Origin: a virus | Taxonomy: Duplodnaviria; Caudoviricetes | Reading direction: 5' to 3' (one strand) | DNA length: 64,000 nt | Virus record (IMG/VR): IMGVR_UViG_3300046791_000095 | Coordinates: 673-64,672 of that record | Shown here: positions 6,442 to 63,789 of the stretch, piece after piece | Position numbering within the stretch: the stretch's first letter is position 1 | How the letters are laid out: the number at the start of each line of letters is the position of its first letter | The notes under the pieces: generated by a model | What the model saw: the letters and a program-made list of their open reading frames with translations, nothing else | What the model was told of the DNA's origin: nothing | The model's database searches: none | Made by a program: the position numbers and the translations under genes

Positions 6442-7291
6442 TGGGCATCGGTACCTGCTGAACGCCGTCACGGCGATTCATGAGGATGTCCTTGTTGTCA
6501 TCGGCGAGTCTGAGGCACGCGGAACGATGAAGAACCCGTTGCCCTTCTCTGTCCGTGAAGCTATGGTCAGAGAAGCATACCCGAAGGTGAAAGTCGTGCA
6601 GTTGCGTGACTGCTCCTCAGACGAGAAGTGGTCGTACAATCTCGATACGCGAATTTGGGACGAACGAAGCGGATACGAACTTGGAAAAGGAGCGATGCTG
6701 TACGGTGGCCGTGACAGTTTCCTCAATCATTACCAAGGAGAGTATCCGACGTTTGAACTTCCTCCGGTGCGGCCGATGTCAGGCACAGAAATTCGTGAGG
6801 CTGTTTGCCAGCGGGATAGTGAAGAGTTCCGTGCCGGAATGATCTTCGCAGCGAAGAATCGCTATCCCACATCGTACCAGACGGTGGACGTAGCCATCTT
6901 GAATCAAAGCGAGCAGATTCTCCTCGGAAGAAAGAAGGGTGATGGCGACGCGTGGAGATTCATTGGGGGCTTCGTTAGTCCCAAGGACCCCACGCTTGAA
7001 TACACGGTGATGCGTGAAGTACGAGAAGAGACTGGTCTAGAGGTCGGGTCTCCCCGCTACATCGGTTCTTTCCAGGTGGAGGACTACCGATACCCTTCGG
7101 ACGGTCCAGATAGAATCATGACTGCCCTCTTCACCGTCAAGTACGTATTCGGTTCACCCGAGCCGTCTGACGACATCGACGATTGTTGTTGGTTCTCGTT
7201 ACATGATCTTCCTGACATCGTTCCACAACATCATCCGCTGGTGCATCTACTCCTCGGCTATCGTGCCATGAAAGGACTACCCGATGCTTGA
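6383..7291 (+). CDS. nadM: bifunctional NMN adenylyltransferase / Nudix ADP-ribose pyrophosphatase (NadM-Nudix, NatV-like)
   Basis: RLQ..HDGH, KNPL, SGTEIR, Nudix box GGF...REVREETG; GTG6383 with GGAG RBS. Confidence 0.9.
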   Translation: MKSEHLGVVVVRLQVPRLHDGHRYLLNAVTAIHEDVLVVIGESEARGTMKNPLPFSVREAMVREAYPKVKVVQLRDCSSDEKWSYNLDTRIWDERSGYELGKGAMLYGGRDSFLNHYQGEYPTFELPPVRPMSGTEIREAVCQRDSEEFRAGMIFAAKNRYPTSYQTVDVAILNQSEQILLGRKKGDGDAWRFIGGFVSPKDPTLEYTVMREVREETGLEVGSPRYIGSFQVEDYRYPSDGPDRIMTALFTVKYVFGSPEPSDDIDDCCWFSLHDLPDIVPQHHPLVHLLLGYRAMKGLPDA

Positions 7292-8660
7292 GAACAACAT
7301 CATCCTCGCGACCGACAGCTACAAGGTCACCCACTGGAAGCAGTATCCGAAGGGAACGCAGCGTGTGTTCTCCTTTCTCGAATCTCGGGGTGGCGAGTTC
7401 AAGACCACGACCTTCTTCGGTCTCTCCTACATCATCAAGCGGTTCCTCGCTGGCAAGGTTGTCACTCACGAGAAGATCGCGGAGGCGCGCGAGTTCTTCA
7501 AGCTTCACTTCGGTGACGACACCCTCTTCAATCTGGACGACTGGAACTACATCCTCGCCATGCATGGTGGACAACTCCCGGTCTCCATCCGTGCCATCCC
7601 TGAAGGCACTACCGTTCCCACTGGTAACGTCCTCATGACCATCGAGAACACGGACCCGAACGTGCCGTGGCTCACGAACTACCTAGAAACGATCCTCATG
7701 CAGGTGTGGTACCCGACGACCGTCTGCACCCAGTCGCGTGCGATGAAGCAGGACATCAGTGAGGCAATGAGGTTGTCGGGCGCCGACATGGCTGGTCTCC
7801 CGTTCAAGCTCCACGACTTCGGCTACCGGGGCAGTACTTCGTTCGAGTCGGCCGGCATCGGCGGCTGCGCGCACCTCGTGAACTTCATGGGCACCGACAC
7901 GATGGCTGCCTTGCAGGTCGCTCGAAACTACTACAACGAGCCGATGGCTGGCTTCAGTATCCCCGCTGCCGAGCACAGTACGATGACGGCATGGGGAAAG
8001 ACGAACGAGGCCGAGGCGTACCGGAACATGCTGGAGCAGTTCCCGAAGGGCTTGGTTGCGGTCGTCAGCGATAGCTACGACATCTATCACGCGTGCAGTG
8101 AAATCTGGGGTGACGAGTTGAAGGATCAGGTCCTCAACCGTGACGGTGTCGTCATCATCCGCCCGGACAGTGGTGATCCTGTCAAGGTCATCCTGAGTCT
8201 GCTGAGCATCCTGGGTGACAAGTTCGGGGTCTCGACGACGAGTACGGGCGACAGAGTTCTGAATCCGAAGGTGCGCCTGATTCAGGGCGACGGGATCGAC
8301 CGAGAGATGTTGACTCACATCCTCGATGCAATGCTCGATGAGAAGTGGTCCATCGACAACATCGCGTTCGGTTCTGGTGGTGGCCTACTCCAGAAGGTGA
8401 ACCGCGATACCTGCAAGTTCGCTCTGAAGTGCAGTGCCATCGAAGTCAATGGCAAGTGGCTTGACGTGATGAAGGACCCGATCACGGACAGTGGGAAGCG
8501 GTCGAAGGCGGGCCGGCTGATCCTCGTCAAGGATAAGGGTGGATACCGGACTGTGCAGGAAGGGAGTAGTGGCTCGAACCTTCTCGAAGAGGTCTTCCGT
8601 AACGGTCAGCACATCCTTCCTCCGACGCTGTCGGGGATTCGGGAGCGAGCTTCGCGCTAA
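7284..8660 (+). CDS. nadV: nicotinamide phosphoribosyltransferase (NAMPT)
   Basis: TDSYKVTH, LHDFGYRG, AAEHS, SDSYD, RPDSGDP, QGDG, FGSGGGLLQK. Confidence 0.95.
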   Translation: MLENNIILATDSYKVTHWKQYPKGTQRVFSFLESRGGEFKTTTFFGLSYIIKRFLAGKVVTHEKIAEAREFFKLHFGDDTLFNLDDWNYILAMHGGQLPVSIRAIPEGTTVPTGNVLMTIENTDPNVPWLTNYLETILMQVWYPTTVCTQSRAMKQDISEAMRLSGADMAGLPFKLHDFGYRGSTSFESAGIGGCAHLVNFMGTDTMAALQVARNYYNEPMAGFSIPAAEHSTMTAWGKTNEAEAYRNMLEQFPKGLVAVVSDSYDIYHACSEIWGDELKDQVLNRDGVVIIRPDSGDPVKVILSLLSILGDKFGVSTTSTGDRVLNPKVRLIQGDGIDREMLTHILDAMLDEKWSIDNIAFGSGGGLLQKVNRDTCKFALKCSAIEVNGKWLDVMKDPITDSGKRSKAGRLILVKDKGGYRTVQEGSSGSNLLEEVFRNGQHILPPTLSGIRERASR

Positions 8661-9197: not shown

Positions 9198-9425
9198 ATG
9201 AGCAACTCTCAGCAGTCGTACCAGAGCGGAGGCGTCGGGTTCACCGGCCTTCTCGCCGTTGCGTTCATCGTCCTGAAGCTCATCGGAGTCATTCACTGGT
9301 CGTGGTGGTGGGTCACTGCTCCCCTCTGGGGCGGTCTTGCGATCTTCATCGCGATCATGATCGTCCTGCTTCTCGTCTTGGGCATTGGCGAACTCATTGG
9401 TGGACATCAGCGTCCGCCTCGGTAA
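9198..9425 (+). CDS. small two-TM phage membrane protein
   Basis: GGVGF..LL..FIVLKLIGVIHWSWWWVTAPLW, a widespread phage family pattern. Confidence 0.75.
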   Translation: MSNSQQSYQSGGVGFTGLLAVAFIVLKLIGVIHWSWWWVTAPLWGGLAIFIAIMIVLLLVLGIGELIGGHQRPPR

Positions 9426-9438
9426 GAAAGGAAATTCT

Positions 9439-10728
9439 GTGAGCAACATTCGCTGGTTCACCGACATCAACGAGGTTGAGCCCGAAGCGCGTGCGCAGGT
9501 GGAACGGACGGCGAGCATGCCCTTCGTCAAAGGCGTAGCCGTCATGCCTGATGTTCACTTCGGCAGAGGCTCGACTGTGGGCACCGTTGTGGCTACGAAG
9601 GGTGCAGTCATGCCTGCCTGTGTGGGCGTGGACATCGGCTGTGGGATGATCGCGGTCCGGACGAATCTCAAGCCCGAGGCTGTGCGCCCGCATCTCGTGA
9701 AGATTCGTGAGGGCATCGAACGACGCATCCCGCTCGGGATCGGCCAGCGGGGGATGAACTCGAAGATTCTCCCGACGGCCGAGTCACGCATTGCGATGCT
9801 CGAAGCTGAGGCTGCGCACGCGTGGGCCGATGTGAATCACATGAACGCCCGCGCGAAGGACTGGCGGAGTCAGTTGGGCTCCCTCGGTGGGGGTAATCAC
9901 TTCATCGAGGTGTGCGTGGGACGCTCCTTCGACAACTACGACGCCGATAGTGTTGGATTTCCTTTTGGCCCGGAGGAGGTCTGGGTCATCCTTCACTCTG
10001 GCTCGCGCGGTGTTGGCAACAAGACGGGAACTCACTGGACCCAGGTTGCCAAGAAGCAGGCGGCCCGGTACAAGTACGACACGTACCTGCCTGATGCTGA
10101 TCTCGCGTACCTTGTGCAGGAGAGCGAGGAGTACCATCAGTACATGAAGGAGTTGTACTGGTGTCAGTCCTTCGCGCAACTCAACCGTGACGAGATGATG
10201 GATCGGGTTATCAATGAACTGTCTTACACACTGTGCGGTGGATACGGAACTCCTGCTCTTCCGTTTGACATCGATCTGCGGAAGGACATGGAGTCTGACA
10301 GGCTCATTGAAGTCGAGCGCATCAACTGTCATCATAACTACGTCAGCAAGGAGCATCATGATGGCGACAACGTCCTCATCACCCGGAAGGGCGCAATACT
10401 GGCGTCTGATGGAACGCGCGGGCTCATTCCCGGTTCGATGGGGGCGAGCAGTTTCATCGTTACGGGCCTTGGGCATTCCGGAGCGTACTGTAGCGCACCT
10501 CATGGGGCTGGCCGCAGAATGTCTCGAACGGCAGCACGAAAGCAGTTCACTCTCGAAGGAGTCACGCAAGAGATGGCGTCGCTCGGCATTGAAGCCCGAG
10601 TCCGCGAAGCAATCGTTGACGAAGCTCCGGGCGCGTACAAGAACATCGACATCGTGATGTTCGATGCGCGGGAGCTTGTGCGTCCGACGCACGTCCTGAA
10701 TCAACTCATCAGCGTGAAGGGAGACTGA
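9439..10728 (+). CDS. rtcB: RtcB RNA ligase
   Basis: MPDVHFG, GVDIGCG, LGGGNHF, HSGSRG, HHNY, PGSMG, HGAGR, DEAPGAYK, terminal KG. Confidence 0.95.
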   Translation: MSNIRWFTDINEVEPEARAQVERTASMPFVKGVAVMPDVHFGRGSTVGTVVATKGAVMPACVGVDIGCGMIAVRTNLKPEAVRPHLVKIREGIERRIPLGIGQRGMNSKILPTAESRIAMLEAEAAHAWADVNHMNARAKDWRSQLGSLGGGNHFIEVCVGRSFDNYDADSVGFPFGPEEVWVILHSGSRGVGNKTGTHWTQVAKKQAARYKYDTYLPDADLAYLVQESEEYHQYMKELYWCQSFAQLNRDEMMDRVINELSYTLCGGYGTPALPFDIDLRKDMESDRLIEVERINCHHNYVSKEHHDGDNVLITRKGAILASDGTRGLIPGSMGASSFIVTGLGHSGAYCSAPHGAGRRMSRTAARKQFTLEGVTQEMASLGIEARVREAIVDEAPGAYKNIDIVMFDARELVRPTHVLNQLISVKGD

Positions 10729-20377: not shown

Positions 20378-20526
20378 CGCTCACGAAAGCTCTGGAGGGG
20401 ATCATGGAGATGCTTCGTCAATCACACGGCGAACGGCGAGAGCGAGTCCTAGACAGACTCATGGTGCGTCTTGAATCCCAGGGTTTCTCAACGGACTCGT
20501 TTCCCCGGCGTCGGAGGTCAGCATGA
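20263..20526 (+). CDS. small zinc-finger protein
   Basis: CTVC...CELC; AGGAG upstream. Confidence 0.5.
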   Translation: MPEERCTVCGRGYTRGAATDERPEFHIEYRSLCELCGLTLTKALEGIMEMLRQSHGERRERVLDRLMVRLESQGFSTDSFPRRRRSA

Positions 20527-20672
20527 AGGAAGTACATATGTGGGAGAGCGAGGAGCTTGGCCTTGTTCTCCTTGAGCAAGAGATGAAACCAGTTCTCGCA
20601 GAAGAGATCAGTCGATACATCAAGTACCTTGAAACTGAGCTTGCCCATGCTCGACTACGGAGGTTCGCATGA
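20523..20672 (+). CDS. 49-aa hypothetical protein (not in ORF track)
   Basis: GGAGG RBS; ATGA-coupled at both ends. Confidence 0.5.
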   Translation: MKEVHMWESEELGLVLLEQEMKPVLAEEISRYIKYLETELAHARLRRFA

Positions 20673-23137
20673 AAGCATACGGCAAGGCCAACGCGCCATA
20701 CCTCTTCGTGATGGTCAGTAAGCCAAGCGAGGGAATGGAAGCGTGGTTCTGGCGCCATCTACACAAGGTTGGAATTCTGAAGTCGCAGTGCCGGATCGTC
20801 TACATGATCAACGAGCCTCCGGCCGGCGCGAACAACAAGCCTCTGAAGGCTCAAATCCGTGATGCGCGTGACCGCTTCGAGAACGAGATCAGACGCTCTT
20901 CTCCACAGGTCGTGATCCCGATGGGAACGGAGCCGTTCTACCTTCTCACCGGAATCAACGAAGGAATCTTCGATGCGCGTGGTTACCTGATCCGGGCGCA
21001 TCTGTTCCATCAGATGCCGAAGGAAGTCTGGAAGCAGATCGGTACCTACAAGAACGCGAGCAAAGCATCGGGCGCCAAGAAGGGTGACCCGAAGATGAAG
21101 TGGGTCTCTGAAGATCAGCCGGGACTACTCGGCGTGGACTTCAAGGGCGTCGTGATCCCGACGTTCACTCTGGAGCACATTCGGACCGAATCATTCTCGG
21201 TGAGCCCGGCATTCATCGAAGACATCAAGCGCATGAAGCGTGCGTTCGACGGTGACCTCCGTGAGGTCGGGAAGAAGATGAAGGTCATCACGACCTTCGA
21301 CAAGCTTCCGCCCGTGTCGCGTATGGGCGAGATGATTGCTGTGGACATCGAGACGCACGGGATCGACAACGAAGTGATCGACCTCGTATCGTTCAGCGAT
21401 GGCAAGACCACGGCTGTCATCGAGTGGGACAAGGACATTCGGGACTACCTATCGAGGATGTTCGCGCTGCCGAAGCGCATCTTCGTGTTCCACAACTCTC
21501 CGTTCGACCTCCCTCGTTTGGTCGCGAACGGGGTCAACATTGCCCCGTCCGTGATCGAAACGTCAACCTTCGACACCATGTTCGGGGGCGTGCAGGTGCA
21601 GCCAGACCTCCACAAGGCGCTCGGGCGGATGGCGTCGCTGTACCTCGACATCGAGCCGTGGAAGACCTCCTCTCGTAAGGAGACTTCTCACTGGCGTGCG
21701 ATGGTCAAGTCGGACCCGAAGATGTACGCAGCGAAGGACTCCTTCAACACCTACTGGATTGCTGTCCAGTTGATCGCGATCATGAAGGACCTCGGCGTGT
21801 GGAACTACTTCATGGGACAGAACGGACATCCTGGCCCGGGAGTCATGGCGACGCTGCCCGAGCTTGCGGAGATGTCGCGCGGTGGACTCCGTACGAACCG
21901 AGAGTATGCGCGTGAAGTCTGCCCGAAACTGGAGAAGCGCCTGATGCGCTACCTCACGCTCTGGACGCAGATGTTCCCGAACATCAGGTTCTCGTCGAAC
22001 CCGCAGTTGCAGAAGCTCCTCTACAGACAGTGGGGATTGCCGATCCAGCGGAACAAGGAAGACGGTGTCAGTGTGGACGAACTCGCGCTCGTCAAGCTAC
22101 AGGCGTTCGTTCGGGACAACCGCGAGAATGGGATGCTCCCCGGCAAGTGGCAGACTGATCCTCGGGCTGTGCCACGTACATTCGATCTGATGTACAAACT
22201 GCGCAAGACGAGCAAGATGCTCTCGACTTACGTTCAGCCCGTGATGTTCTCTGAGGAGTCGTGGGTGCATCCGAGTTACCTGCCCGCGTCGAAGGATGAC
22301 GAGCGGGGAGGAAAGAAGATGGACAATAAGGGCGCCACGGCGACGGGGCGTCTTGCGAGCTTCAAGCCGAACATCCAGAACCAGATGAAGGAGAAGATCG
22401 GCAATGTTAGCGTCCGACACCTCTACGTTCCTGACTCCGAAGATATGTGCTTCGTTCAGGCGGATTACAAGTCTGCCGAGTTGTACGTGCTTGCCGGGGT
22501 GTCTGGCGACAAGCGACTGTTGGCTGATCTCGCGGGTGACATGCACCAGCGGAATGCGGATCGTCTCACAGAGGTACTGGGTGAGCTTGTAACGCGCAAG
22601 GTTGCGAAGAACGTGACGTACGCGTCTCAGTATCTTGCGAGCCCGGCGAAGCAGAGCGAGATGATCCTGGAGCAGGAGCATCTGTACATCTCTCCGGCGC
22701 AGTGTCTGTCAGTATCGGAAGGAATCTGGGGCTACTACACGAAGGCGACAGCGTACAAGCAGTTGCTCGTCGAGCTTTGTGAGTCGCAGAGGTACATCAC
22801 CAATCCGTTCGGGCGTACTCGGTTCTTCCATGCTGGCCGTGCTCCCGCAGCGGTGGACTTCATCCCGCAGAGTGTTGTTGCAGACATCCTCTGGTGCGTC
22901 CTGAAGGACGTAGCGATGATGTTGCGATCTTACGGAGGACGGCTCGTAACTACAGTTCATGATTCGATCCTCGGCTGTGTTCCTGCGATACATCGTGAAG
23001 AGGCAGCGTACATGATGAAGGAAATCATGGAGCGTCGCTTTGATTGTGTTCGCAAAGGTTTCTACATCCCGGTTGAGATCGAGATGGGAGAAGCTGGTGC
23101 GTCGTGGGCTGAACTGAAGAAGTGGGAGGCGGCGTGA
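20669..23137 (+). CDS. polA: family A DNA polymerase with N-terminal UDG-like domain and 3'-5' exonuclease
   Basis: ExoI DIETHG, HN..FD, YAAKD; TGRLAS..PNIQN; motif A DYKSAE; motif B RKVAKNVTY; motif C VHDS. Confidence 0.92.
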   Translation: MKAYGKANAPYLFVMVSKPSEGMEAWFWRHLHKVGILKSQCRIVYMINEPPAGANNKPLKAQIRDARDRFENEIRRSSPQVVIPMGTEPFYLLTGINEGIFDARGYLIRAHLFHQMPKEVWKQIGTYKNASKASGAKKGDPKMKWVSEDQPGLLGVDFKGVVIPTFTLEHIRTESFSVSPAFIEDIKRMKRAFDGDLREVGKKMKVITTFDKLPPVSRMGEMIAVDIETHGIDNEVIDLVSFSDGKTTAVIEWDKDIRDYLSRMFALPKRIFVFHNSPFDLPRLVANGVNIAPSVIETSTFDTMFGGVQVQPDLHKALGRMASLYLDIEPWKTSSRKETSHWRAMVKSDPKMYAAKDSFNTYWIAVQLIAIMKDLGVWNYFMGQNGHPGPGVMATLPELAEMSRGGLRTNREYAREVCPKLEKRLMRYLTLWTQMFPNIRFSSNPQLQKLLYRQWGLPIQRNKEDGVSVDELALVKLQAFVRDNRENGMLPGKWQTDPRAVPRTFDLMYKLRKTSKMLSTYVQPVMFSEESWVHPSYLPASKDDERGGKKMDNKGATATGRLASFKPNIQNQMKEKIGNVSVRHLYVPDSEDMCFVQADYKSAELYVLAGVSGDKRLLADLAGDMHQRNADRLTEVLGELVTRKVAKNVTYASQYLASPAKQSEMILEQEHLYISPAQCLSVSEGIWGYYTKATAYKQLLVELCESQRYITNPFGRTRFFHAGRAPAAVDFIPQSVVADILWCVLKDVAMMLRSYGGRLVTTVHDSILGCVPAIHREEAAYMMKEIMERRFDCVRKGFYIPVEIEMGEAGASWAELKKWEAA

Positions 23138-25597: not shown

Positions 25598-25840
25598 ATG
25601 TCCTACGTCTGGATCAAACTCGTGACGGCGTGTGGCTGTTCAAAGGAGTGGTTGAGTCCAGAGAACTGGACCAGATCAAAGTACGTTGTTTCACTCCCGA
25701 CACCTGTCAAAATAAGTGGAGGAGAACCTGATCTAGCGAACACCTTTCCTCGGACTCGTACTTTCAAATTGTACAACGAGTACTGGGATAATGTTCGGAA
25801 GATTCGTGTTGTCGTCTATGAAGAGTCTTTAGGGGAGTAG
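25598..25840 (+). CDS. hypothetical protein
   Basis: Follows exonuclease; 3' end overlaps tRNA by 10 nt. Confidence 0.45.
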   Translation: MSYVWIKLVTACGCSKEWLSPENWTRSKYVVSLPTPVKISGGEPDLANTFPRTRTFKLYNEYWDNVRKIRVVVYEESLGE

Positions 25841-25906
25841 CGCAGAGGCCAGCGTGCCCGTTTTGGAAACGGGCGGTCGTGGGTTCGAATCCCACCTCCC
25901 CTGCCA
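25831..25906 (+). tRNA. tRNA with TGG (Pro) anticodon on a Trp-type body
   Basis: AGGGGAG/CTCCCCT acceptor, CCCGT-TTTGGAA-ACGGG, GTGGG-TTCGAAT-CCCAC, G73, CCA. Confidence 0.9.
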
Positions 25907-26159: not shown

Positions 26160-26242
26160 AGCTCCCTGATGGAATGCAGACATGCCAGCCTTAGAAGCTG
26201 GTGCCTTCGGGCGTGAGGGTTCGAATCCCTCGGGAGCTACCA
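26160..26242 (+). tRNA. tRNA-Leu(TAG)
   Basis: AGCTCCC/GGGAGCT, CCAGC-CTTAGAA-GCTGG, long variable arm, TTCGAAT T-loop, ACCA end. Confidence 0.9.
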
Positions 26243-38225: not shown

Positions 38226-41200
38226 TTAGCTCTCGTTGCGATTCGAATCCGGGAAGCCCGCTTCACTGAGAACGTAGGTGAGCGTGTGAATCCGCATGTT
38301 CACTCCCAGATCAGCCCAGGTGAGAGTATCTCCGTTGCTGTCGAAAGTAAGAGGAACCTTCTCGATTTGGATTTCAAAACCACGACGCATCTTCGTGTTG
38401 TTGTAGCTGGCCAAGTCTCCAACGAGGGTAGAGATGTAGTCAGTACGAAGACCCTTGACAGCTTCTCCTAGGCCGCTCCCTCGTAGGGTTACTCCGAGGG
38501 TTCCGGTGTCGAAGGTCAGGGTAGCAGACCCACTCGCGTTGGCTGCCCGAGAGATCGTGATGCTGCTGCTGCTGGCTTTCGAAACGACGATGGTCCCCGG
38601 GTCGATTCCAGTTCCCAGTACGCGCATGCCGGGCAGAACCGAGGCGAAAGCTGCTGACGAGGTCACCGTCGTCGTGTTGATTACGGTAGTTGAAAGTGCC
38701 GTCACAGAGTTCGATCCGAAGGGAGCGAAGTGCAAGTAGACCTTCTCACCGAATCCATCACGGTCGAGAGTGATCGGGTAGAACTTACGAGTCCGGATCA
38801 GCGGAATGATCTTCACGTCCACTGCGGACGCGGTCTTTCCGTCTCCGTTGGCGGAGTCATCGTTCAGACGGGCTTGATAGCCCGAAGGAATCGTGAGGCC
38901 GCTATCTTCGACGTAGACCTTGCCATCTGCTTCATGGCCGGTGAAGATGTACGGAGTTCCGTTGAGGTATGCTTCGCAGGCTGAACGGGCAGAGGCGACG
39001 CTTGGACCCACCGCAGGCATTCCCGAGTTGTCCTTCAGCTTGTCGGCCTGATAGCAGAAGTACATGACACGAGTGTTCTTGTTGTGGGTAGCGCCGGCTG
39101 GACAGTAGAAGAGGGCGAGCCACTTCTGCTTTGGGTACACGCGAAGAACGGCCGTACCGAGCGCCGAGATTTTCACCGTGTTCTCCCAATCGAGGTCCAG
39201 ATTCAGAGGCATCGTCCAGATACCGTTCGTGAGGAACATGCCGACCGTCGAGGCGTAGGCAAGCATGATTCCCTTGCCCGGCATATCGAACTTCACGCCG
39301 CAGAACGGCCCCGGGATACCGTGATCCGTCGCAACGTCCTCATGAGCCAGACCGGTGTCGAGCTTGGTGTCCGACTCCTTGGGCAGGTAGTTCACCCGCT
39401 TGATCGAGTTCTCCATGCCAACAAGGAGCATGCCGTTCAGAGTCTTGATGAACGTCACCTTGTCCTTCTTACGCGTGTTGAACGTAAGCTCGTACGGCTT
39501 CGGCCACGCCTCCGGATCACCTGGGAGTGAGAAGCGAATCTGGTTCTCCTGAATCCGGTTGTTGAGAACGAACGAACCCTGAAAGAAGTCACCCGTCGTT
39601 GGCTGTGGGGGAAGAAGACGGGCCGGGTCACTGATCGTGGTTCCCACCTGATCCTGATACGTCACTACACGGTACGCGGGACCATTGAAGTCCACGTTCG
39701 TAGTCGTGTAGTAGATTTTGATCGCAACACCATCGAGGAAGAGCGCGTCCTTGTGCCCTCGGTTGGCGATGCCTACTTCCACTTCGAGGTTGGGCGTGTC
39801 AGCAAGAACCCACGCAACACCCATCGTGTCCATCGGACCACCGTGGTAGTTGGTGTGATTCCCCTGCCCACCAAATTCTCCATAGTACGTATCGGTGGAC
39901 TTCGTTGCCCCGGTCGTCATCAGACGTACCCAGTAGCGCGCGGTCGGCGTGGTGTCACCGCTTGGGTCCGCATAGCCACGGACTTGCAACTCGATACCGA
40001 AGATCAGCTTGGCCAAGTACGCTCCGACCACTGAGAATCCGTAGGTCGTGAGTCCGTTCGCAGCATTGTCCGGCATGTTCTTGTTCGAGCCGCCGACCTT
40101 ACTCGCAGCGTCCGAGTTGTCGAAGACCCCAAGCAGCCGCTCGGCAGCCCCGAACTCAGGACGACCAGCCGCAGTCCGCTTGGCGGTTGGGTACTTGATC
40201 TGGGTTAGCGTGTTCTCGGTGAGCGTGAAGGTTGCCCCGGCAGCGAAGGTCGTGATCGGAACCGTCGCACACCGACGTAGCTGAGCCAGCGAGGGAAGGT
40301 CCGTGGACGGACCATAGATGTAGACTCCCCAGTGAGTGGCGATGTAGCCGTCACGGCCATCATTGGTCACAGCGGGGAACGTGATGAGGATGTTGTCACT
40401 CGCCGGAGTCACAATAGTGGCGCCGATGGGCAGACCGATACCAGACTGGGAACCATTGTCACCGGTAGTCGAATTGTCGGCCGCAAGGTAAGACGACTCG
40501 ACAATCTGAGACCGTAGAGCCGGGTCCTTCAAGGCAGTCGCGATGTTCGCTTCCGGAGAGAAGATTTCCGTGATCAGGAGCCAGTACTTGCCTGCACCCT
40601 TCACAGCGTTCCAGCCGGTAGCTTGCGCGGTCTGAACCGTGATCGTTGGTGCAGTTTCAACCGGTCTCAGACCAACTGGGCGAATCCCTAGGACAGAGCC
40701 GAGGGTGGCGTCGCTTGCAGTCGCGCGAGCTTTCCACTCGACGCACTGGAGATTTCCGATGCCGTCCCACATATAGTAGCGACGAGCACCGTACTGGACG
40801 AAGTCGAGAATCTCTCCGCCCGTGTTGTTCCAGTCGTAGACCGAACCGAAGGTGATGATGAAGTTGTAGTTTCCGTTTCCGCTCGCCGGAGCAACCGAGA
40901 GGGTTGCAGTTCGGTAGTGTCCAGTCGTGCCATCCTGATTCGAAACAGCCGTAATTCGGACGTTCGTTCCGATGCCGGTCCCGATGAGTCTCGCTCCGAT
41001 AGCCGTGATCAGAAATGGGTACTGGGTGAACGTCAGAGTCACAGTACCAGCAGAACCAGCCGTATCGAGCGTGATCTGGGTAGCACTGTCAACAGAGAGG
41101 ACACGCGTGCCGGCCGTGATCCCGGTACCACTCACGACCGCGCCCGGAGACACGTTCGAAAACGAGTTACTGGTCGTCACGACAGTGCTCGCAATGGTGC

Positions 41201-42579: not shown

Positions 42580-43866
42580 TTACCTCAGAGCAACTCCTAC
42601 CTTCTTGATCTGTTCGAGGGTAGGTTGCTGAATGATGGGGCGTCCGATTTCTCGGCGTTGACGTGCCCGTGTCTCTTCATAGAATTCGAAGAGGCCAGGG
42701 ATCGTCGCCTTTGGTGTGCGATTTTCCAAGACCCATCGTCTCGCCCCAGAAGCAACATGAGCGCGAAGAGCAGGGTCTTCGATGAGCCGAGAGAGCTTCT
42801 GAACGAACTCTTCGGGAGTGTCGTAGAGGAGTCCAGTTTCGCCATCGATGATCTCCTTGTATGGACCGAAGTTCGACGCAAGGGTGGCCTCGGGCTGTTC
42901 CCAGATGGAGCCTTCGTACCACTTGATGGCAGACTTGCCGGCGTTGAACATATTCTTCTTCAGCGGGCAGAGGTTGATGTCGATGTTCAGAAGACCACGC
43001 TTGAGCTTGTACGCGTCGTACTCGTTCCAAGCATGATGCTCAACCATGTGATCAGGGATCGTCTCGTGAATCCACTTGAACCACTCACCGTAGATCACGA
43101 ACTTCACGTTCGGATACTTCTGGCAAATGACCTTGAGGGCATCGCGGAGAGGGTACCAGTCCACCCAGTGGCTCATACCACCCTGCCATAGGATGCGAAT
43201 GGAGTCGTCTTCACGTACTGCACGAATTTTCTCGTAGTGCTCAGGGATGATCGTGTTCGGGAAGACGTAGACGTTCGGCTGGCCGATGACTTCCTTGAAG
43301 TACCGGGCGAGATTCGGGGTGGTCACGGTCGCACCGTGGCACGTCCGGATGATCTCGTGGCGAACCTTCATCTGGTGAAGGTTGCGTGCGATGTCGAACT
43401 TGAGCCCATCGAGGTGGGTCTCCTGATCGACGATCTGCCAGATTTTGTTCCCCTCGGCGTCGAAGATTTCCATGCCATCTCCTGGGGTCAGGAGGTGGGC
43501 ATCGGGATAACTGCGGATACCCATGCTTACGTAGCTCGTGTTGAATGGGTGAACGAAGTCATTGTTGTCGTCGATGTCGTAGATCAGAGCCGGAGGGTAG
43601 ATGTCGTTGCCATCACGGATCGCGGGCTTGATGTTTTTCAGGACCTGCATCTTGTGCAGGATCGATTCACCAGCCACTGCGTAGAAGTGCGAGATGTCAG
43701 AGTACATCTGTGCGATGTGGGAGTCGGGCGTACCACCCTTGTCCTCGAAGACCTTGGCTAGGCCGAACGACATCAACTGCGTCATTGGTGCTTCAATCCG
43801 GTAGTACGAGCAGGCGCTCCGCTTTCCGAAATTGAGGGTCCAGACGTGGAAGGGATTGGCAGACAC
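42580..43866 (-). CDS. glycosyltransferase family 4 (GT-B) within the virion operon
   Basis: YYRI..P, YDIDD, DINLCPL...FN.GKS.IKWYE, DGETGLL. Confidence 0.85.
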   Translation of the reverse strand: MSANPFHVWTLNFGKRSACSYYRIEAPMTQLMSFGLAKVFEDKGGTPDSHIAQMYSDISHFYAVAGESILHKMQVLKNIKPAIRDGNDIYPPALIYDIDDNNDFVHPFNTSYVSMGIRSYPDAHLLTPGDGMEIFDAEGNKIWQIVDQETHLDGLKFDIARNLHQMKVRHEIIRTCHGATVTTPNLARYFKEVIGQPNVYVFPNTIIPEHYEKIRAVREDDSIRILWQGGMSHWVDWYPLRDALKVICQKYPNVKFVIYGEWFKWIHETIPDHMVEHHAWNEYDAYKLKRGLLNIDINLCPLKKNMFNAGKSAIKWYEGSIWEQPEATLASNFGPYKEIIDGETGLLYDTPEEFVQKLSRLIEDPALRAHVASGARRWVLENRTPKATIPGLFEFYEETRARQRREIGRPIIQQPTLEQIKKVGVALR

Positions 43867-57524: not shown

Positions 57525-57913
57525 GTACTTTCCTTTCGCTGGAGCTTCGTGTTGATCGCCTCTTCCCAAAGGTGGAGGCGCTTGGGCGACTTGCGAATGT
57601 ACTCCATCATGTGCGCGTCGAGAGCGAGGATGCAAACCTCTTCGAGTGAGCCATCGACGATGCCGATGAAGGTGGAGATGAAAACGACGTGGAGGAGTTC
57701 GTGGATGACGGTGGAGATGTGATCCATGACGCCCGTTTGCTGATTCGCGTCTACCTTGATGACGATGTTGGTCGGCGGGGTGATCTCATCCCAGAGGCTG
57801 AGGCCCTGCTGTGCCACCATCGGGCCGAAGGTCAGGTGGACTTCCGGGTGATTGAGGAGTTCCAGGAGGACTGAGTGGAGCTTCTGGCGCGTCAGTGGAT
57901 ACTTTCCCTTCAT
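57521..57913 (-). CDS. HExxH zincin-like metallopeptidase
   Basis: TVIHELLH...LEE. Confidence 0.6.
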   Translation of the reverse strand: MKGKYPLTRQKLHSVLLELLNHPEVHLTFGPMVAQQGLSLWDEITPPTNIVIKVDANQQTGVMDHISTVIHELLHVVFISTFIGIVDGSLEEVCILALDAHMMEYIRKSPKRLHLWEEAINTKLQRKEST

Positions 57914-58538
57914 CGGAGGGCTCCACGGTGAATGCTTCGTTCACAGCAGCGAGGGTGATCGTGGGGCCGCATGCAACCATCATTTCCTTGAGACGCGAAG
58001 TCGCCTCCGCACGGGTCATCGGAACCGATGGGCCGAGGTCCTTCGCCTTCGCCTTCTCCTTGAGCTTCTGCCAGAGCGTCGATGCGCTCATGCGCGTGTC
58101 GGGATGGAGGCGTGGGTCGAAGATGAAGCGGAGACACTGCTTGATGACGCGCTTCTCGATCTCCTCTTCCGTGAGATCGCCCGCGTCGTACATATCGATC
58201 ATGTCCGACATGGCCTTCATGGCTTCATGGTCGAGCATCTTCGATGGCTTGCTCGGATTATCGAGGGCCGGCTCTGCTGATTCGCTAGAGGGCTCAGATA
58301 CCTCCGCAGCGCGTGGAGTCGTTGGACGCGACGGGCGCGTCTTCGGAGCCTTTGCTACGGTCTGAGGCTTGCGCGAGGGCGGGAGCCGGCTCTCGGAAAT
58401 CAGAGCGCGACGTGCGATGGCGATTGTGGCAGTCGAGACTTTTGCCCCGATTGCCTGCTGCTCCTTCGTTTCGTCCGGATGGGCCAGGATGTACTCTGTG
58501 GCCTGCTTGAACTTCAGTTCACGAAGCGTTGTCATCAT
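57786..58538 (-). CDS. HTH protein, candidate terminase small subunit
   Basis: First gene of the late arm; N-terminal HTH-like segment (QQAIGAKVSTATIAIAR). Confidence 0.45.
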   Translation of the reverse strand: MMTTLRELKFKQATEYILAHPDETKEQQAIGAKVSTATIAIARRALISESRLPPSRKPQTVAKAPKTRPSRPTTPRAAEVSEPSSESAEPALDNPSKPSKMLDHEAMKAMSDMIDMYDAGDLTEEEIEKRVIKQCLRFIFDPRLHPDTRMSASTLWQKLKEKAKAKDLGPSVPMTRAEATSRLKEMMVACGPTITLAAVNEAFTVEPSDEGKVSTDAPEAPLSPPGTPQSPGSPPDLRPDGGTAGPQPLG

Positions 58539-58633
58539 ATACGTCCGTATTTTTGGGTGGCCTGGGGGCTGCGCACATTTCGCGCCATCGTTGGGGGGTC
58601 TCCGGGACCCTCCCATGCGAGCAGGCGCCCACG

Positions 58634-59530
58634 TTGGCACGAGTCTTGCTACAGCAAGTAGCGTGCCAGCATGCATGCACCCCGCGCAGGCTCGCGCGCT
58701 CGTTGGCATGGTTCTTGCCATAGCACATATCGTGCCAGCGGGCGACCCAGACCAGCGTAGCATAGATCGTGCCGGGATGCAAGCTGGAACAGTCAAGCGC
58801 GCGCAAAGCTTTTCCCGCCCCGAATTGCGTGTTGTCACACAGAACTGAGGGCGCGGCGAGTCGAATGCGGAACAGGGCGAGCCCACCCACAAGCAAGCCG
58901 AGTGCCAGTCTTCTAAGTTGTAATGTAATAGAACAAATAATTACAAGCATAAGGTGGCACAGTTCCACTGTAGCCCGCCCCATCCGGGGCTACACAGTGA
59001 AAGCCTGTGCAACACCTAAGGCGCATGCAATGACTATGCCAAGAACTCTGGCACGCCGCTTGCTAGTCCGCGAAAACGCTCCAACCCTCTGTCCCCCAAC
59101 GCGTTACACCATTCGTTCGAGAAGGCCCCTAGCGTGCCCGCTGGCCGCGCCAATATGGCCGCGTGCCTCCCCATAGCCGCGCCCACCTGTGCAGTAGCGT
59201 AACCCCAACTCGCACATCACGTTGCGCCGTTTCCCCGACCCATCGAGGGAACAAAAACTCGCCGCGCTCCGTCGATCCTAGGAGCCCGCCCTCGCTGCTC
59301 GCCTGCGCACCCGGGCGCTCCCTCGTTCAGTTTCGCAACAGTGCCCCGAGAGGGCGTGTCCAAATTGACACACTCGCCCCGATTCTGACCTGTGCCACGC
59401 GCCCCTATCTAATGAGTAGAAGTCAAAATCACGTCGTGCAGAAAAGTGTTGCATCACTCGCACTCTGCATGCTACACTGGTCTGAGCAGCACGAGGTCGC
59501 AAGAGGTTACACTGTGGCATCACCCTTGCA
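58634..59530. promoter_or_regulatory. array of nine sigma54 (-24/-12) motifs
   Basis: GG-N10-GC (TGGCA.....TTGC-like) at 58634+, 58653-, 58703+, 58722-, 58759-, 58892-, 59026-, 59048+, 59514+. Confidence 0.75.
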
Positions 59531-59540
59531 CTCTACTTCG

Positions 59541-60046
59541 TCAGTCACACGATCCGAAGCGCCAAGAGCCCGAAGGACCCGCAAGGTCCCGTGGGACGAT
59601 AGAGCGGACGGAACGACAGGAGCGGCCCGGAACGGGCCATAAGAGTAGCCCAAGCCTAACGGAACAGGTGCGCGTCCTGCCTCTTCACCAGTGGCGGCGA
59701 ACCCATCGACCAGCGGCGAAAGCGCCTCCACCCAGTGCAGCGCGAAGCGGTAGTCGGAACGCACGCCCCATCGGCACTCGCACTCGCCACACCTCGATGC
59801 AGCCCCGCAACGGGCCGCCCGGGTGGAAGCGACCGCGAAGGCCACGACGACATGGGAGAGCGAGAAGGCGCAGAGCCTCCACGAGAGGCGGCACACAAGC
59901 GGCAGGGCAAACGCACCTAGAGCGGAATGCGCGCGACCAACAGATCGGCCGAAGCTGGCCGGATGCGCGCACACTGCGATGATGCCGGGATACCGGCGAG
60001 CGGTGAAACGCGACGACCTTAGGAACGAGCCCGAGCCGAATGAGTC
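59541..60046 (+). ncRNA. large (~500 nt) structured non-coding RNA
   Basis: Nested long-range stems, many hairpins, k-turn-like motif, T-poor with purine-rich linkers; bounded by a sigma54 site and a ribozyme cleavage site. Confidence 0.6.
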
Positions 60047-60177
60047 GTGAGATGGTGTAGGTCTCGGCGACGGCTGCATCAAGAACGAGGAGCACTGGGT
60101 TCGAAGCCCGTGCTCGGATGCTAGCCCGAGAGACCTCACCGCCTCTCACCTGACGAGCCCCAGAAGGGCGAAACTCA
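60041..60177 (+). ncRNA. type III hammerhead ribozyme
   Basis: TGAGTC^ / stem I GTGAGA..TCTCAC / CTGACGA / stem II GCCC-CAGAA-GGGC / GAAACTCA. Confidence 0.88.
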
Positions 60178-60191
60178 ACCTAGGAGGCGTT

Positions 60192-60530
60192 GTGGCCCTC
60201 ACCATCGATTGTCGCACCAGCCCGGACCAGTCCGAGGTCGCCATCTACACGCGGCAGCAGTGGCTTCAGATCGTCGCCTTCATGATGATGTTCGTGGGCA
60301 TCTCGGACATCACCGAAGCGAACCTCGACGAGACTTACCGTCGCATGCACCTCTGGGAGAGCACTGGCGGCCCGCTCGCGGGCGACATCCACGGTCCGGT
60401 CACCGAGGCCACGCTCCGCTACTTCATCGGCGCCCACGCGAACGTCAGCACGATGACCAAGCGTCAGTTCACCGCCCGCTTCAAGTGCTACGCTGCGGAC
60501 GTGGCGACGCGCAAAGCGAAGGCGGCCTGA
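60192..60530 (+). CDS. early hypothetical protein
   Basis: AGGAGG RBS directly after the hammerhead. Confidence 0.7.
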
Positions 60531-62727: not shown

Positions 62728-63789
62728 ATGGCACACGAGATCATGGGCAACCGCTTCCTCGCGCGTAGCAAGTCGGCGTGGCACAACCTCGGCACCATCT
62801 TCAACGAAGACGAGAAGCTCACCGCCTCGCAGGCGATGGAGCAGGTGGCAGGTGGGCTCAGCTTCGACCGTGCGCCCGTGTCGTACACCCTCGATGGGGT
62901 GACGCACGAGATGCCCGACACGAAGGTCATCATCCGGCGCCCCACTGCCGACGACCCGAAGCCACTCGTGCTCGGCATGGCCTCGGATTCGTGGGCGGCC
63001 GACACATACCCGGACCTCGCGAAGACGCTGGACCCGCTGCATCCCTCCTACCCTGTCGAGACTGCTGGCATCCTCAAGGGTGGCGGCCTCGCGTTCCTCT
63101 GCTTCCGTGGTGAGGACTGGGCGGTCAAGGGCGACGAGATGCGCAGCTACTTCGCGGCCAACTTCAGCCTGACGCCGGGCGAAGGTCACCGTATCTTCCA
63201 CTCGCCCGTCCGTGTTGTCTGCTGGAACACGAACACGATGGCGCAGGGGCAGGCGAGCATCAACCTGCGCATCTCGCACTCGGCCGACGCCAAGGCGCAG
63301 ATGAATCTCGCGGCCAGGTTGGTGACCCAGTTCGCCGAGATGAAGGACAAGGCGGCTGGCATCTTCGCGGCCTTCGCGGATCAGCAGGTGACGCAGAAGG
63401 ATGTGGACTCGATCATCTGGGCGGCGTTCCAGTTGCCGGCGCTGCCCTCGAAGCTGAAGCTCCTGAAGCAGAGTCTCAGCGAGACCGAGGCTGCCGTCTT
63501 CAAGCGTGCCCTCACGCCTGACCTTCTGCTCGACCTGAACCGTGAGCAGGAGCGGTACGACCGGCAGTGCGAGAACACCGTCAAGCTGCGCGAGGCTGCG
63601 CAGAAGTCGTTCGAGGAGTTCAGCCCGGCTAACCTGCGAGGGACGGCATGGGCGGCGTACAACGCGGTGACCGAGGTGTCCGACTGGCGTGAGGGCCGTG
63701 AGGCCGACATCAGCGCGCTCATCGGGAGCCGTGCACAGGAGAAGTCGCGGGCCTACGTGGCTGCGATGGAAGTGGTGGGCATCAAGTAA
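62728..63789 (+). CDS. DUF932/DUF945-family protein
   Basis: AWHNLG, ETAG.LKGG, SPVRVVCWNT, RISH, RGTAWAAYNAVTE. Confidence 0.85.
   Translation: MAHEIMGNRFLARSKSAWHNLGTIFNEDEKLTASQAMEQVAGGLSFDRAPVSYTLDGVTHEMPDTKVIIRRPTADDPKPLVLGMASDSWAADTYPDLAKTLDPLHPSYPVETAGILKGGGLAFLCFRGEDWAVKGDEMRSYFAANFSLTPGEGHRIFHSPVRVVCWNTNTMAQGQASINLRISHSADAKAQMNLAARLVTQFAEMKDKAAGIFAAFADQQVTQKDVDSIIWAAFQLPALPSKLKLLKQSLSETEAAVFKRALTPDLLLDLNREQERYDRQCENTVKLREAAQKSFEEFSPANLRGTAWAAYNAVTEVSDWREGREADISALIGSRAQEKSRAYVAAMEVVGIK

Follow-up and report, generated by a model that had tools for sequence, protein, structure and literature searches.

Clustered boxes matching the sigma-54 promoter consensus at the strand switch of environmental phage genomes

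The DNA analysed here is a stretch of 64,000 nucleotides (the window), which makes up all but the first 672 of the 64,672 bases of a single phage record with terminal repeats in the IMG/VR collection. Its genes are arranged in two divergent arms, and the non-coding gap between the arms contains nine closely grouped boxes of the GG-N10-GC type, which match the -24/-12 promoters recognised by the alternative sigma factor sigma-54. Clustering and quality of match, not the raw count, set these boxes apart from the rest of the genome. The array is kept in relatives of the phage, and arrays of the same box occur at the main strand switch of other phages that have little else in common. We propose that the boxes are high-affinity sites for the sigma-54 holoenzyme of the host and would serve as enhancer-dependent master promoters for both arms, a reading from sequence to which we give slightly less than an even chance.

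The first-pass annotation of the window had listed nine sigma-54 boxes, and all nine are present with the places, strands and letters that it gave. It had also described two convergent pairs separated by the same 2-nt gap, and these are found at 58635-58650(+)/58653-58668(-) and at 58704-58719(+)/58722-58737(-). We refer to such a head-to-head pair as a double box. To score a box, GG and GC were required and matches were counted at the 12 specified positions of TGGCACGNNNNTTGCW. The control region and its boxes are as follows.

58539 to 60191, no strand: intergenic control region of 1,653 bp between the divergent arms, from maps of open reading frames (ORFs) and annotation, with the strand switch also found by a rough gene caller
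58572 to 58587, minus strand: weak box TGGCGCGAAATGTGCG, 9/12
58635 to 58650, plus strand: box TGGCACGAGTCTTGCT, 12/12, left half of double box 1
58653 to 58668, minus strand: box TGGCACGCTACTTGCT, 12/12, right half of double box 1
58704 to 58719, plus strand: box TGGCATGGTTCTTGCC, 10/12, left half of double box 2, in the 69-bp repeat unit
58722 to 58737, minus strand: box TGGCACGATATGTGCT, 11/12, right half of double box 2
58759 to 58774, minus strand: single box CGGCACGATCTATGCT, 10/12, toward the left arm
58892 to 58907, minus strand: single box TGGCACTCGGCTTGCT, 11/12, toward the left arm
59026 to 59041, minus strand: single box TGGCATAGTCATTGCA, 10/12, leftward, back-to-back with the box at 59049
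59049 to 59064, plus strand: single box TGGCACGCCGCTTGCT, 12/12, toward the right arm
59515 to 59530, plus strand: single box TGGCATCACCCTTGCA, 10/12, the last before the right arm

All nine boxes are non-coding and each faces one of the arms; the gap itself holds no convincing ORF. Both double boxes belong to a 59-nt unit, the two copies of which lie 69 bp apart.

The pattern GGCAY-N6-TGC occurs nine times in the window, and every match falls at 58636-59529, which bears out the earlier claim that the boxes are confined to the control region. The total is unremarkable in itself, as the mean in shuffled sequence was 4.56 and 6 of 100 shuffles reached nine. The placing of the matches is another matter. 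Boxes scoring at least 10/12 number 11 in the window, nine of them in the gap, and the binomial probability that at least nine of 11 fall within 1,653 bp is 2.7e-13. All five boxes of at least 11/12, including all three of 12/12, lie in the gap. The two outliers, 29920(-) and 45903(+), score 10/12 each and lie within the coding arms. Over the whole 64,672-bp record the 12/12 pattern was found three times and its reversed control not at all. Four DNA sequencing runs were also compared, and a variant strain (run X11) showed six differences in 58571-58968. One is in the spacer of the box at 58653-58668, five lie between the double boxes and none is at a consensus position, a pattern that by our own estimate is not significant ((1-72/398)^6, about 0.3).

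The match to sigma-54 sites is close. The published consensus is TGGCAC-N5-7-TTGCT (PMC12316311); the same source has Actinomycetota as effectively without rpoN, the gene for sigma-54. Measured against TGGCAC-N5-TTGC with GG and GC 10 bp apart, three boxes of the window score 12/12 and all nine at least 10/12; they fit the sigma-54 consensus as the first-pass annotation had stated, and better than most bacterial promoters do. Further evidence comes from a scan of IMG/VR for the double-box pattern GGCAYG-N5-TGC-N4-GCA-N5-CRTGCC, in which the loci listed comprised 137 instances, 126 of them distinct, at 31-68% G+C. An extended sigma-54 consensus with flanking preferences was reportedly compiled by Barrios et al. 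in 1999, and is said to have a pyrimidine and T before GG, a purine after CACG, T before TGC and A/T after GC. At positions that our search left free, the 126 distinct double boxes have T before GG in 85% and C/T one base further up in 83%, A/G after CAYG in 76% and T before TGC in 73%, in agreement with that extended consensus.

The logo of the box also bears on its identity. The 37 single and 50 paired boxes in the 13 genomes described below give the same logo, which argues that the 16-bp asymmetric box is the unit, as for a sigma factor. The two spacers of a pair are not complementary, and the pair is therefore not an RNA or DNA hairpin. Between copies of the box only the consensus positions are kept, and the spacers differ. 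As the box is common to phages otherwise little alike, which range from 31 to 68% G+C and have different terminases, a conserved host factor is the likelier binder. To our knowledge sigma-54 is the only factor with this specificity. Judged by sequence, the sigma-54 identity of the boxes is well supported.

The first-pass annotation had suggested looking for similar arrays in related phages, and the array is indeed kept in relatives. Two IMG/VR contigs that are nearly identical to each other (L004 and L005) encode a large terminase 76% identical to that of the window. At the syntenic place both have five GGCAY-N6-TGC boxes within 330 bp, the same head-to-head pair among them. In the 61.5-kb record of L004, five of the 11 matches to this pattern fall within that place. 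The weak box at 58572-58587 also keeps its distance to the start of the first left-arm gene, which encodes a winged-helix-like protein of 250 amino acids (-49 in one phage and -52 in the other). We took as more distant family members those loci of the double-box scan that encode a homologue of this 250-residue protein, at 33-45% identity: L013/L034/L061, L077/L038 and L091. Relative to the start of the gene for this protein, the proximal double box is placed at -105 to -141 in four of six family loci, and the remaining two have it at about -232 to -253; further boxes in both directions are found upstream. The box nearest to the right arm is a single one in each of the five family lineages examined. 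It ends in TTGCA in four lineages and in ATGCA in one, followed by CT in four of the five.

The double box is a widespread, phage-specific element that extends beyond a single genome. The scan found it in at least 119 IMG/VR stretches, against two for the reversed control pattern. In 596 Gb of bacterial and archaeal genomes, a slightly stricter pattern was found in only 18 stretches. Four of these are plain hairpins with complementary spacers, among them the sole isolate genome; the others are mostly short contigs from metagenome bins, some with whole arrays (one, L139, has 14 boxes). In two terminase clusters, every locus (36/36 and 9/9) has the double box on the upstream side of the large terminase. 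The array-bearing loci as a whole have different terminase families, and the genes adjacent to the array vary between groups. No account of sigma-54 box arrays in phages came to light in our search of the full-text literature, which had subscription journals and supplementary files outside its scope.

We found no cultured relative of the window phage by DNA or large-terminase search, and the terminases of other array-bearing phages match those of cultured phages only remotely. Caulobacter phage RW, the nearest cultured phage, and an uncultured siphovirus (MW202545) have no array upstream of their terminase genes. Near its right end phage RW has two GGCAY-N5-RTGCC palindromes (L125, 67-120), a short distance ahead of the gene that opens the terminase-side arm; they are a different and shorter element. 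MW202545 has an unannotated gap of about 1.4 kb upstream of its small terminase (L126, 1913-3288), similar in size to that of the window and without sigma-54 boxes.

We compared the arrays in 13 complete or nearly complete genomes, namely the window phage and 12 further array-bearing ones. Each genome has one main array of 2-19 boxes. Over the 13 arrays, 6,019 bp in all, there are 87 boxes of at least 10/12; the 661 kb outside them have 73. In 13/13 genomes the array lies at the main strand switch, as located with a rough gene caller based on G+C at third codon positions. Some arrays are very dense: genome G026 has ten boxes, all of them 12/12, within about 510 bp and none elsewhere, and genome G017, whose main array counts 19 boxes, has ten that alternate in direction every ~20 bp. 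The spacing within arrays is regular. Head-to-head offsets were counted at 16-20 bp only, and among the 12 pairs not fixed by the search pattern the offset is 18 bp in seven, 19 bp in four and 17 bp in one. Back-to-back neighbours lie 21-24 bp apart, and some arrays are periodic at 39-41 bp. The orientation of the single boxes, 17 outward and 14 inward, is uninformative in a divergent gap.

Other repeats accompany the boxes in some of these genomes. The terminal repeat of G017 (37-205 and 38854-38998; L153, L154) carries extra 10/12 boxes on one strand, mostly 24 or 48 bp apart. Private repeats stand beside the boxes in G026 (20480-20730; L159), where GTTGGTTAAAGCTGACCA and CACAAGCCGTTGTGG each occur three times, and in G003 (42730-42870; L148), where TCGGAAYTCGCAGTTC occurs four to five times. 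Such private repeats could be candidate enhancer or regulator sites, perhaps for the activator of a sigma-54 promoter.

The gene content of the 13 genomes was compared by blastp. Only family-A DNA polymerase (PolA, 11/13) and an SU10-type portal (7/13) are shared, and no small protein is. Several of the left arms begin with small terminases, of unrelated types. A tyrosine integrase was found in 0/13 genomes and a sigma-70-type sigma factor in 1/13; a T7-type RNA polymerase was found in 0/13, though control genomes were equally silent for that family. The array-bearing phages appear to be virulent and dependent on the polymerase of the host. No sigma-54 DNA-binding domain scored above the cut-off in 48 records.

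In the window, the rightward arm runs from 60192 across the record ends to about 25.6 kb, and the leftward arm from 58538 down to about 27 kb, as seen in ORF maps. By annotation, the rightward arm contains a DUF932 protein, nicotinamide phosphoribosyltransferase (NAMPT), RtcB and PolA. The genes for NAMPT, the RtcB RNA ligase and the DUF932 protein, at 7284-8660, 9385-10728 and 62728-63789, are probably early or counter-defence genes. The bacterial rtcBA operon is itself sigma-54-dependent. The leftward arm is annotated with packaging and structural functions: the 250-residue winged-helix-like protein, the large terminase, the SU10-type portal and large structural proteins. Two tRNA genes, tRNA-Pro(TGG) at 25831-25906 and tRNA-Leu(TAG) at 26160-26242, lie at the point of convergence of the arms. 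Three further features lie in or next to the control region.

57786 to 58538, minus strand: first left-arm gene, encoding the 250-residue protein, which has a winged-helix-like domain at its N terminus, followed by a disordered linker and a helical domain at the C terminus
58909 to 58950, no strand: AT-rich island with inverted TTGTAAT/ATTACAA, between the boxes at 58892(-) and 59026(-), read from the sequence
59531 to 60191, plus strand: long leader of about 650 untranslated nt, ahead of the ORF that opens the right arm

The 250-residue protein has no Pfam or PHROG match, and used as the sole query it found no relatives in IMG/VR. Its model has a mean pLDDT (predicted local distance difference test score) of 64.7, and the winged-helix matches are weak: no E-value is below 0.2 for PDB sequences, 0.3 for PDB folds or 0.006 for viral models. 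It may be a small terminase, but this is a guess. The AT-rich island could be a bending site or an unwinding element. The first right-arm ORF starts with GTG at 60192, with AGGAGG just before it. Its leader is purine-rich, with recurring GAGCCCGA-like words, and its 3' end is similar to the shorter leader of L004; in the strain of run X11, 60047-60182 is swapped for 70 other letters. The leader was also considered as an RNA gene. The fold of 656 nt gave z = -1.9 on the plus strand and -2.6 on the minus strand, which is insufficient, and no Rfam family reached the gathering threshold in the control region; a scan of the whole window returned the two tRNAs only.

Sigma-54 promoter complexes stay closed until an ATPase opens them, and transcription starts about 12 nt after the C of the GC. 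Sequence match, clustering, conservation and genomic position of the boxes are observed; binding by sigma-54, firing and timing are inferred, and so are the start sites, from this geometry. With starts about 12 nt after the GC, the two starts of a head-to-head pair would lie about 19 bp apart and run outward. This reasoning does not support the first-pass annotation, which doubted that convergent pairs could readily serve as ordinary promoters. For pair 1 the predicted starts are at ~58661 rightward and ~58642 leftward, the latter giving a leader of ~104 nt to the ATG at 58538. Each pair would thus form a compact two-way promoter, at which polymerases compete for the same DNA and only one can be seated at a time. 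The single boxes would provide extra starts toward the left arm (58759, 58892, 59026) or the right arm (59049, 59515). Closed complexes would hold an arm tightly off until an activator arrives, most plausibly the packaging and structural arm. Since no recognisable activator is encoded by the phage, this role would fall to an enhancer-binding protein of the host or to an unrecognised kind of phage protein. No E. coli-type sigma-70 promoter was called in the control region, and the whole window gave only ten weak matches. Nor was any other repeated 10-12-mer signal present in the window. The absence of sigma-70 calls and of other repeats fits, weakly, with a role for the boxes as master promoters.

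The proposal can be widened to the group. A broad group of virulent, as yet uncultured PolA phages without an RNA polymerase or, with one exception, a sigma factor of their own would run their whole programme from a single control region of head-to-head, super-consensus sigma-54 boxes, either through a phage activator unrelated to the AAA+ enhancer-binding proteins or by capturing the whole sigma-54 pool. We consider this wider version possible, though doubtful. The functions that the first-pass annotation had offered for the array, namely titration of the host holoenzyme, a tie to a host signal, or a scaffold for genome entry, replication or packaging, may likewise be regarded as candidates.

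Several findings weigh against use of the boxes as sigma-54 promoters. The enhancer-binding AAA+ domain PF00158 had no match at E<=1 in the genome of the window, so that the earlier remark that it encodes no activator holds for the known family. The domain was likewise found in 0/47 of the further array-bearing records, 15 of which are at least 90% complete, in a search to which 50 of the at least 119 loci were submitted. With no enhancer-binding ATPase encoded, an essential part of the mechanism is absent from the phages. It is also hard to picture an early arm that needs an activator at infection. The double box is near-absent from bacterial chromosomes, and bacteria do not build sigma-54 promoters in this way. 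The fixed head-to-head offset and the 39-41-bp period look like the co-operative binding of a symmetric protein, and independent promoters would need neither. The logo has C at 65-70% just before TTGC, a preference outside both the published and the extended consensus. Box direction is a weak test of promoter use, because in a divergent gap every box faces some gene. Finally, the window sequence occurs only in soil and rhizosphere DNA runs, and no RNA runs containing it were listed.

Some of these observations would be expected if the boxes were the sites of a phage protein and resembled those of sigma-54 in sequence only, an explanation that we find somewhat unlikely. The protein would be a two-domain or dimeric binder. 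Candidates are a replication initiator, with an iteron-type origin and unwinding at the AT-rich island, or a packaging or partition-like protein. Co-operative binding by a symmetric oligomer fits the fixed offset and the 39-41-bp arrays, and the element is phage-specific and has the extra preference for C in its spacer. It lies at the strand switch, where origins often lie, beside the AT-rich island, and the gene for the winged-helix-like protein adjoins the array in the family of the window. However, apart from PolA and structural proteins no protein family is common to the array-bearing phages, and the genes next to the array differ between groups. Chance likeness to at least 12 consensus positions of sigma-54 plus the flanks is unlikely, and the single boxes are conserved as well as the paired ones. 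No comparable AT-rich island is evident in L004, and no shared initiator family was found. As for packaging, the small terminases are unrelated, and a packaging site would not keep one sequence over 31-68% G+C.

Two specific versions of such a site were considered and rejected. A pac/cos site of the small terminase does not explain why the same box, in up to 19 copies per genome, is found across unrelated small and large terminases and the full range of G+C, although the box site does adjoin packaging genes. An operator array for a lysis-lysogeny decision is at odds with the lack of an integrase in the 13 genomes and with flanks made up of packaging genes and early genes such as DUF932.

It is also conceivable, though unlikely, that the boxes bind sigma-54 or its holoenzyme without firing. 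As a trap, dense super-consensus sites on a replicating genome would soak up scarce sigma-54 and silence host regulons. As a roadblock, polymerase in stable closed complexes would obstruct or insulate transcription at the junction, and might for instance shut an early promoter of the sigma-70 type that overlaps the boxes or lies upstream of them. The sites are indeed denser and closer to consensus than promoters need, as the arrays of G026 and G017 illustrate, and the activator is not encoded. Sigma-54 holoenzyme is described as repressing sigma-70 promoters by occupying overlapping sites (PMC4551910). In L004 one box lies inside the spacer of a TTGCGC-N18-TACACT element, and in the window the box at 59515 stands ~37 bp past TTGCAT-N18-TACACT. 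These sigma-70-like elements are weak, however, and the scanner called none of them. A trap would need no particular place in the genome, yet without exception the array is found at the strand switch, upstream of packaging genes. The boxes also hold fixed, promoter-like places, such as those of the last single box in 5/5 lineages and of the proximal double box in 4/6 loci, and the gain to the phage from silencing sigma-54 regulons is speculative. That the array is an accident of chance or composition, or a recent repeat without selected function, is vanishingly improbable: the raw count of nine in 64 kb and the position of both pairs in one 69-bp tandem duplication would allow it, but it is refuted by the clustering, by the control scan and by the syntenic occurrence of the same array in relatives with only 33-45% identity in the neighbouring protein, and it sits badly with copies in which the consensus positions alone are kept.

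Known phage control regions offer partial parallels. Phage T7 has tandem early promoters A1-A3, and its primary origin consists of two promoters and an AT-rich stretch. Control regions of this type resemble that of the window in stacking several strong promoters beside an AT-rich stretch, but they use sigma-70 or phage polymerase and are co-directional, whereas sigma-54-type boxes of alternating direction are found here. Iteron arrays, as in the lambda origin, and the operator arrays of temperate phages each have a sequence peculiar to one phage, and the gene for an initiator or repressor stands next to them. They share with the present arrays closely spaced, partly symmetric repeats at a strand switch; here, by contrast, one sequence is common to unrelated phages, and an integrase is lacking in all 13.

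The closest likeness is to bacterial sigma-54 promoters, which have the same GG-N10-GC box (TGGCAC-N5-TTGCT; PMC12316311), are intergenic and face genes. The phage boxes differ in standing in arrays of 2-19, many of them head-to-head at an offset of 17-19 bp, in phages with no gene for an enhancer-binding protein nearby or elsewhere, and their function is predicted. In E. coli, according to PMC4551910, the stable, non-productive binding of sigma-54 holoenzyme at consensus sites that overlap promoters causes repression by occupancy. The sites in that case are single and chromosomal; here they form dense arrays in phages, and the overlap with sigma-70-like elements is only suggestive.

The arrays suggest a little-known way for phages to engage the enhancer-dependent RNA polymerase of their hosts. 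Binding of the boxes by a phage protein instead would mean that this protein imitates the DNA specificity of sigma-54, which would be equally unexpected. If they bind sigma-54 holoenzyme, there is a large group of environmental phages that either control this host polymerase or are under its control, and a missing activator or a sequestration strategy awaits discovery. The double box would then also be a simple, portable signature for locating the control region in unfamiliar phage genomes. Should the wider proposal for the group prove true, phage takeover would have in sigma-54 a major target that has been overlooked, and the double box, with its head-to-head halves, would represent a novel kind of promoter switch that works in either direction but not in both at once.

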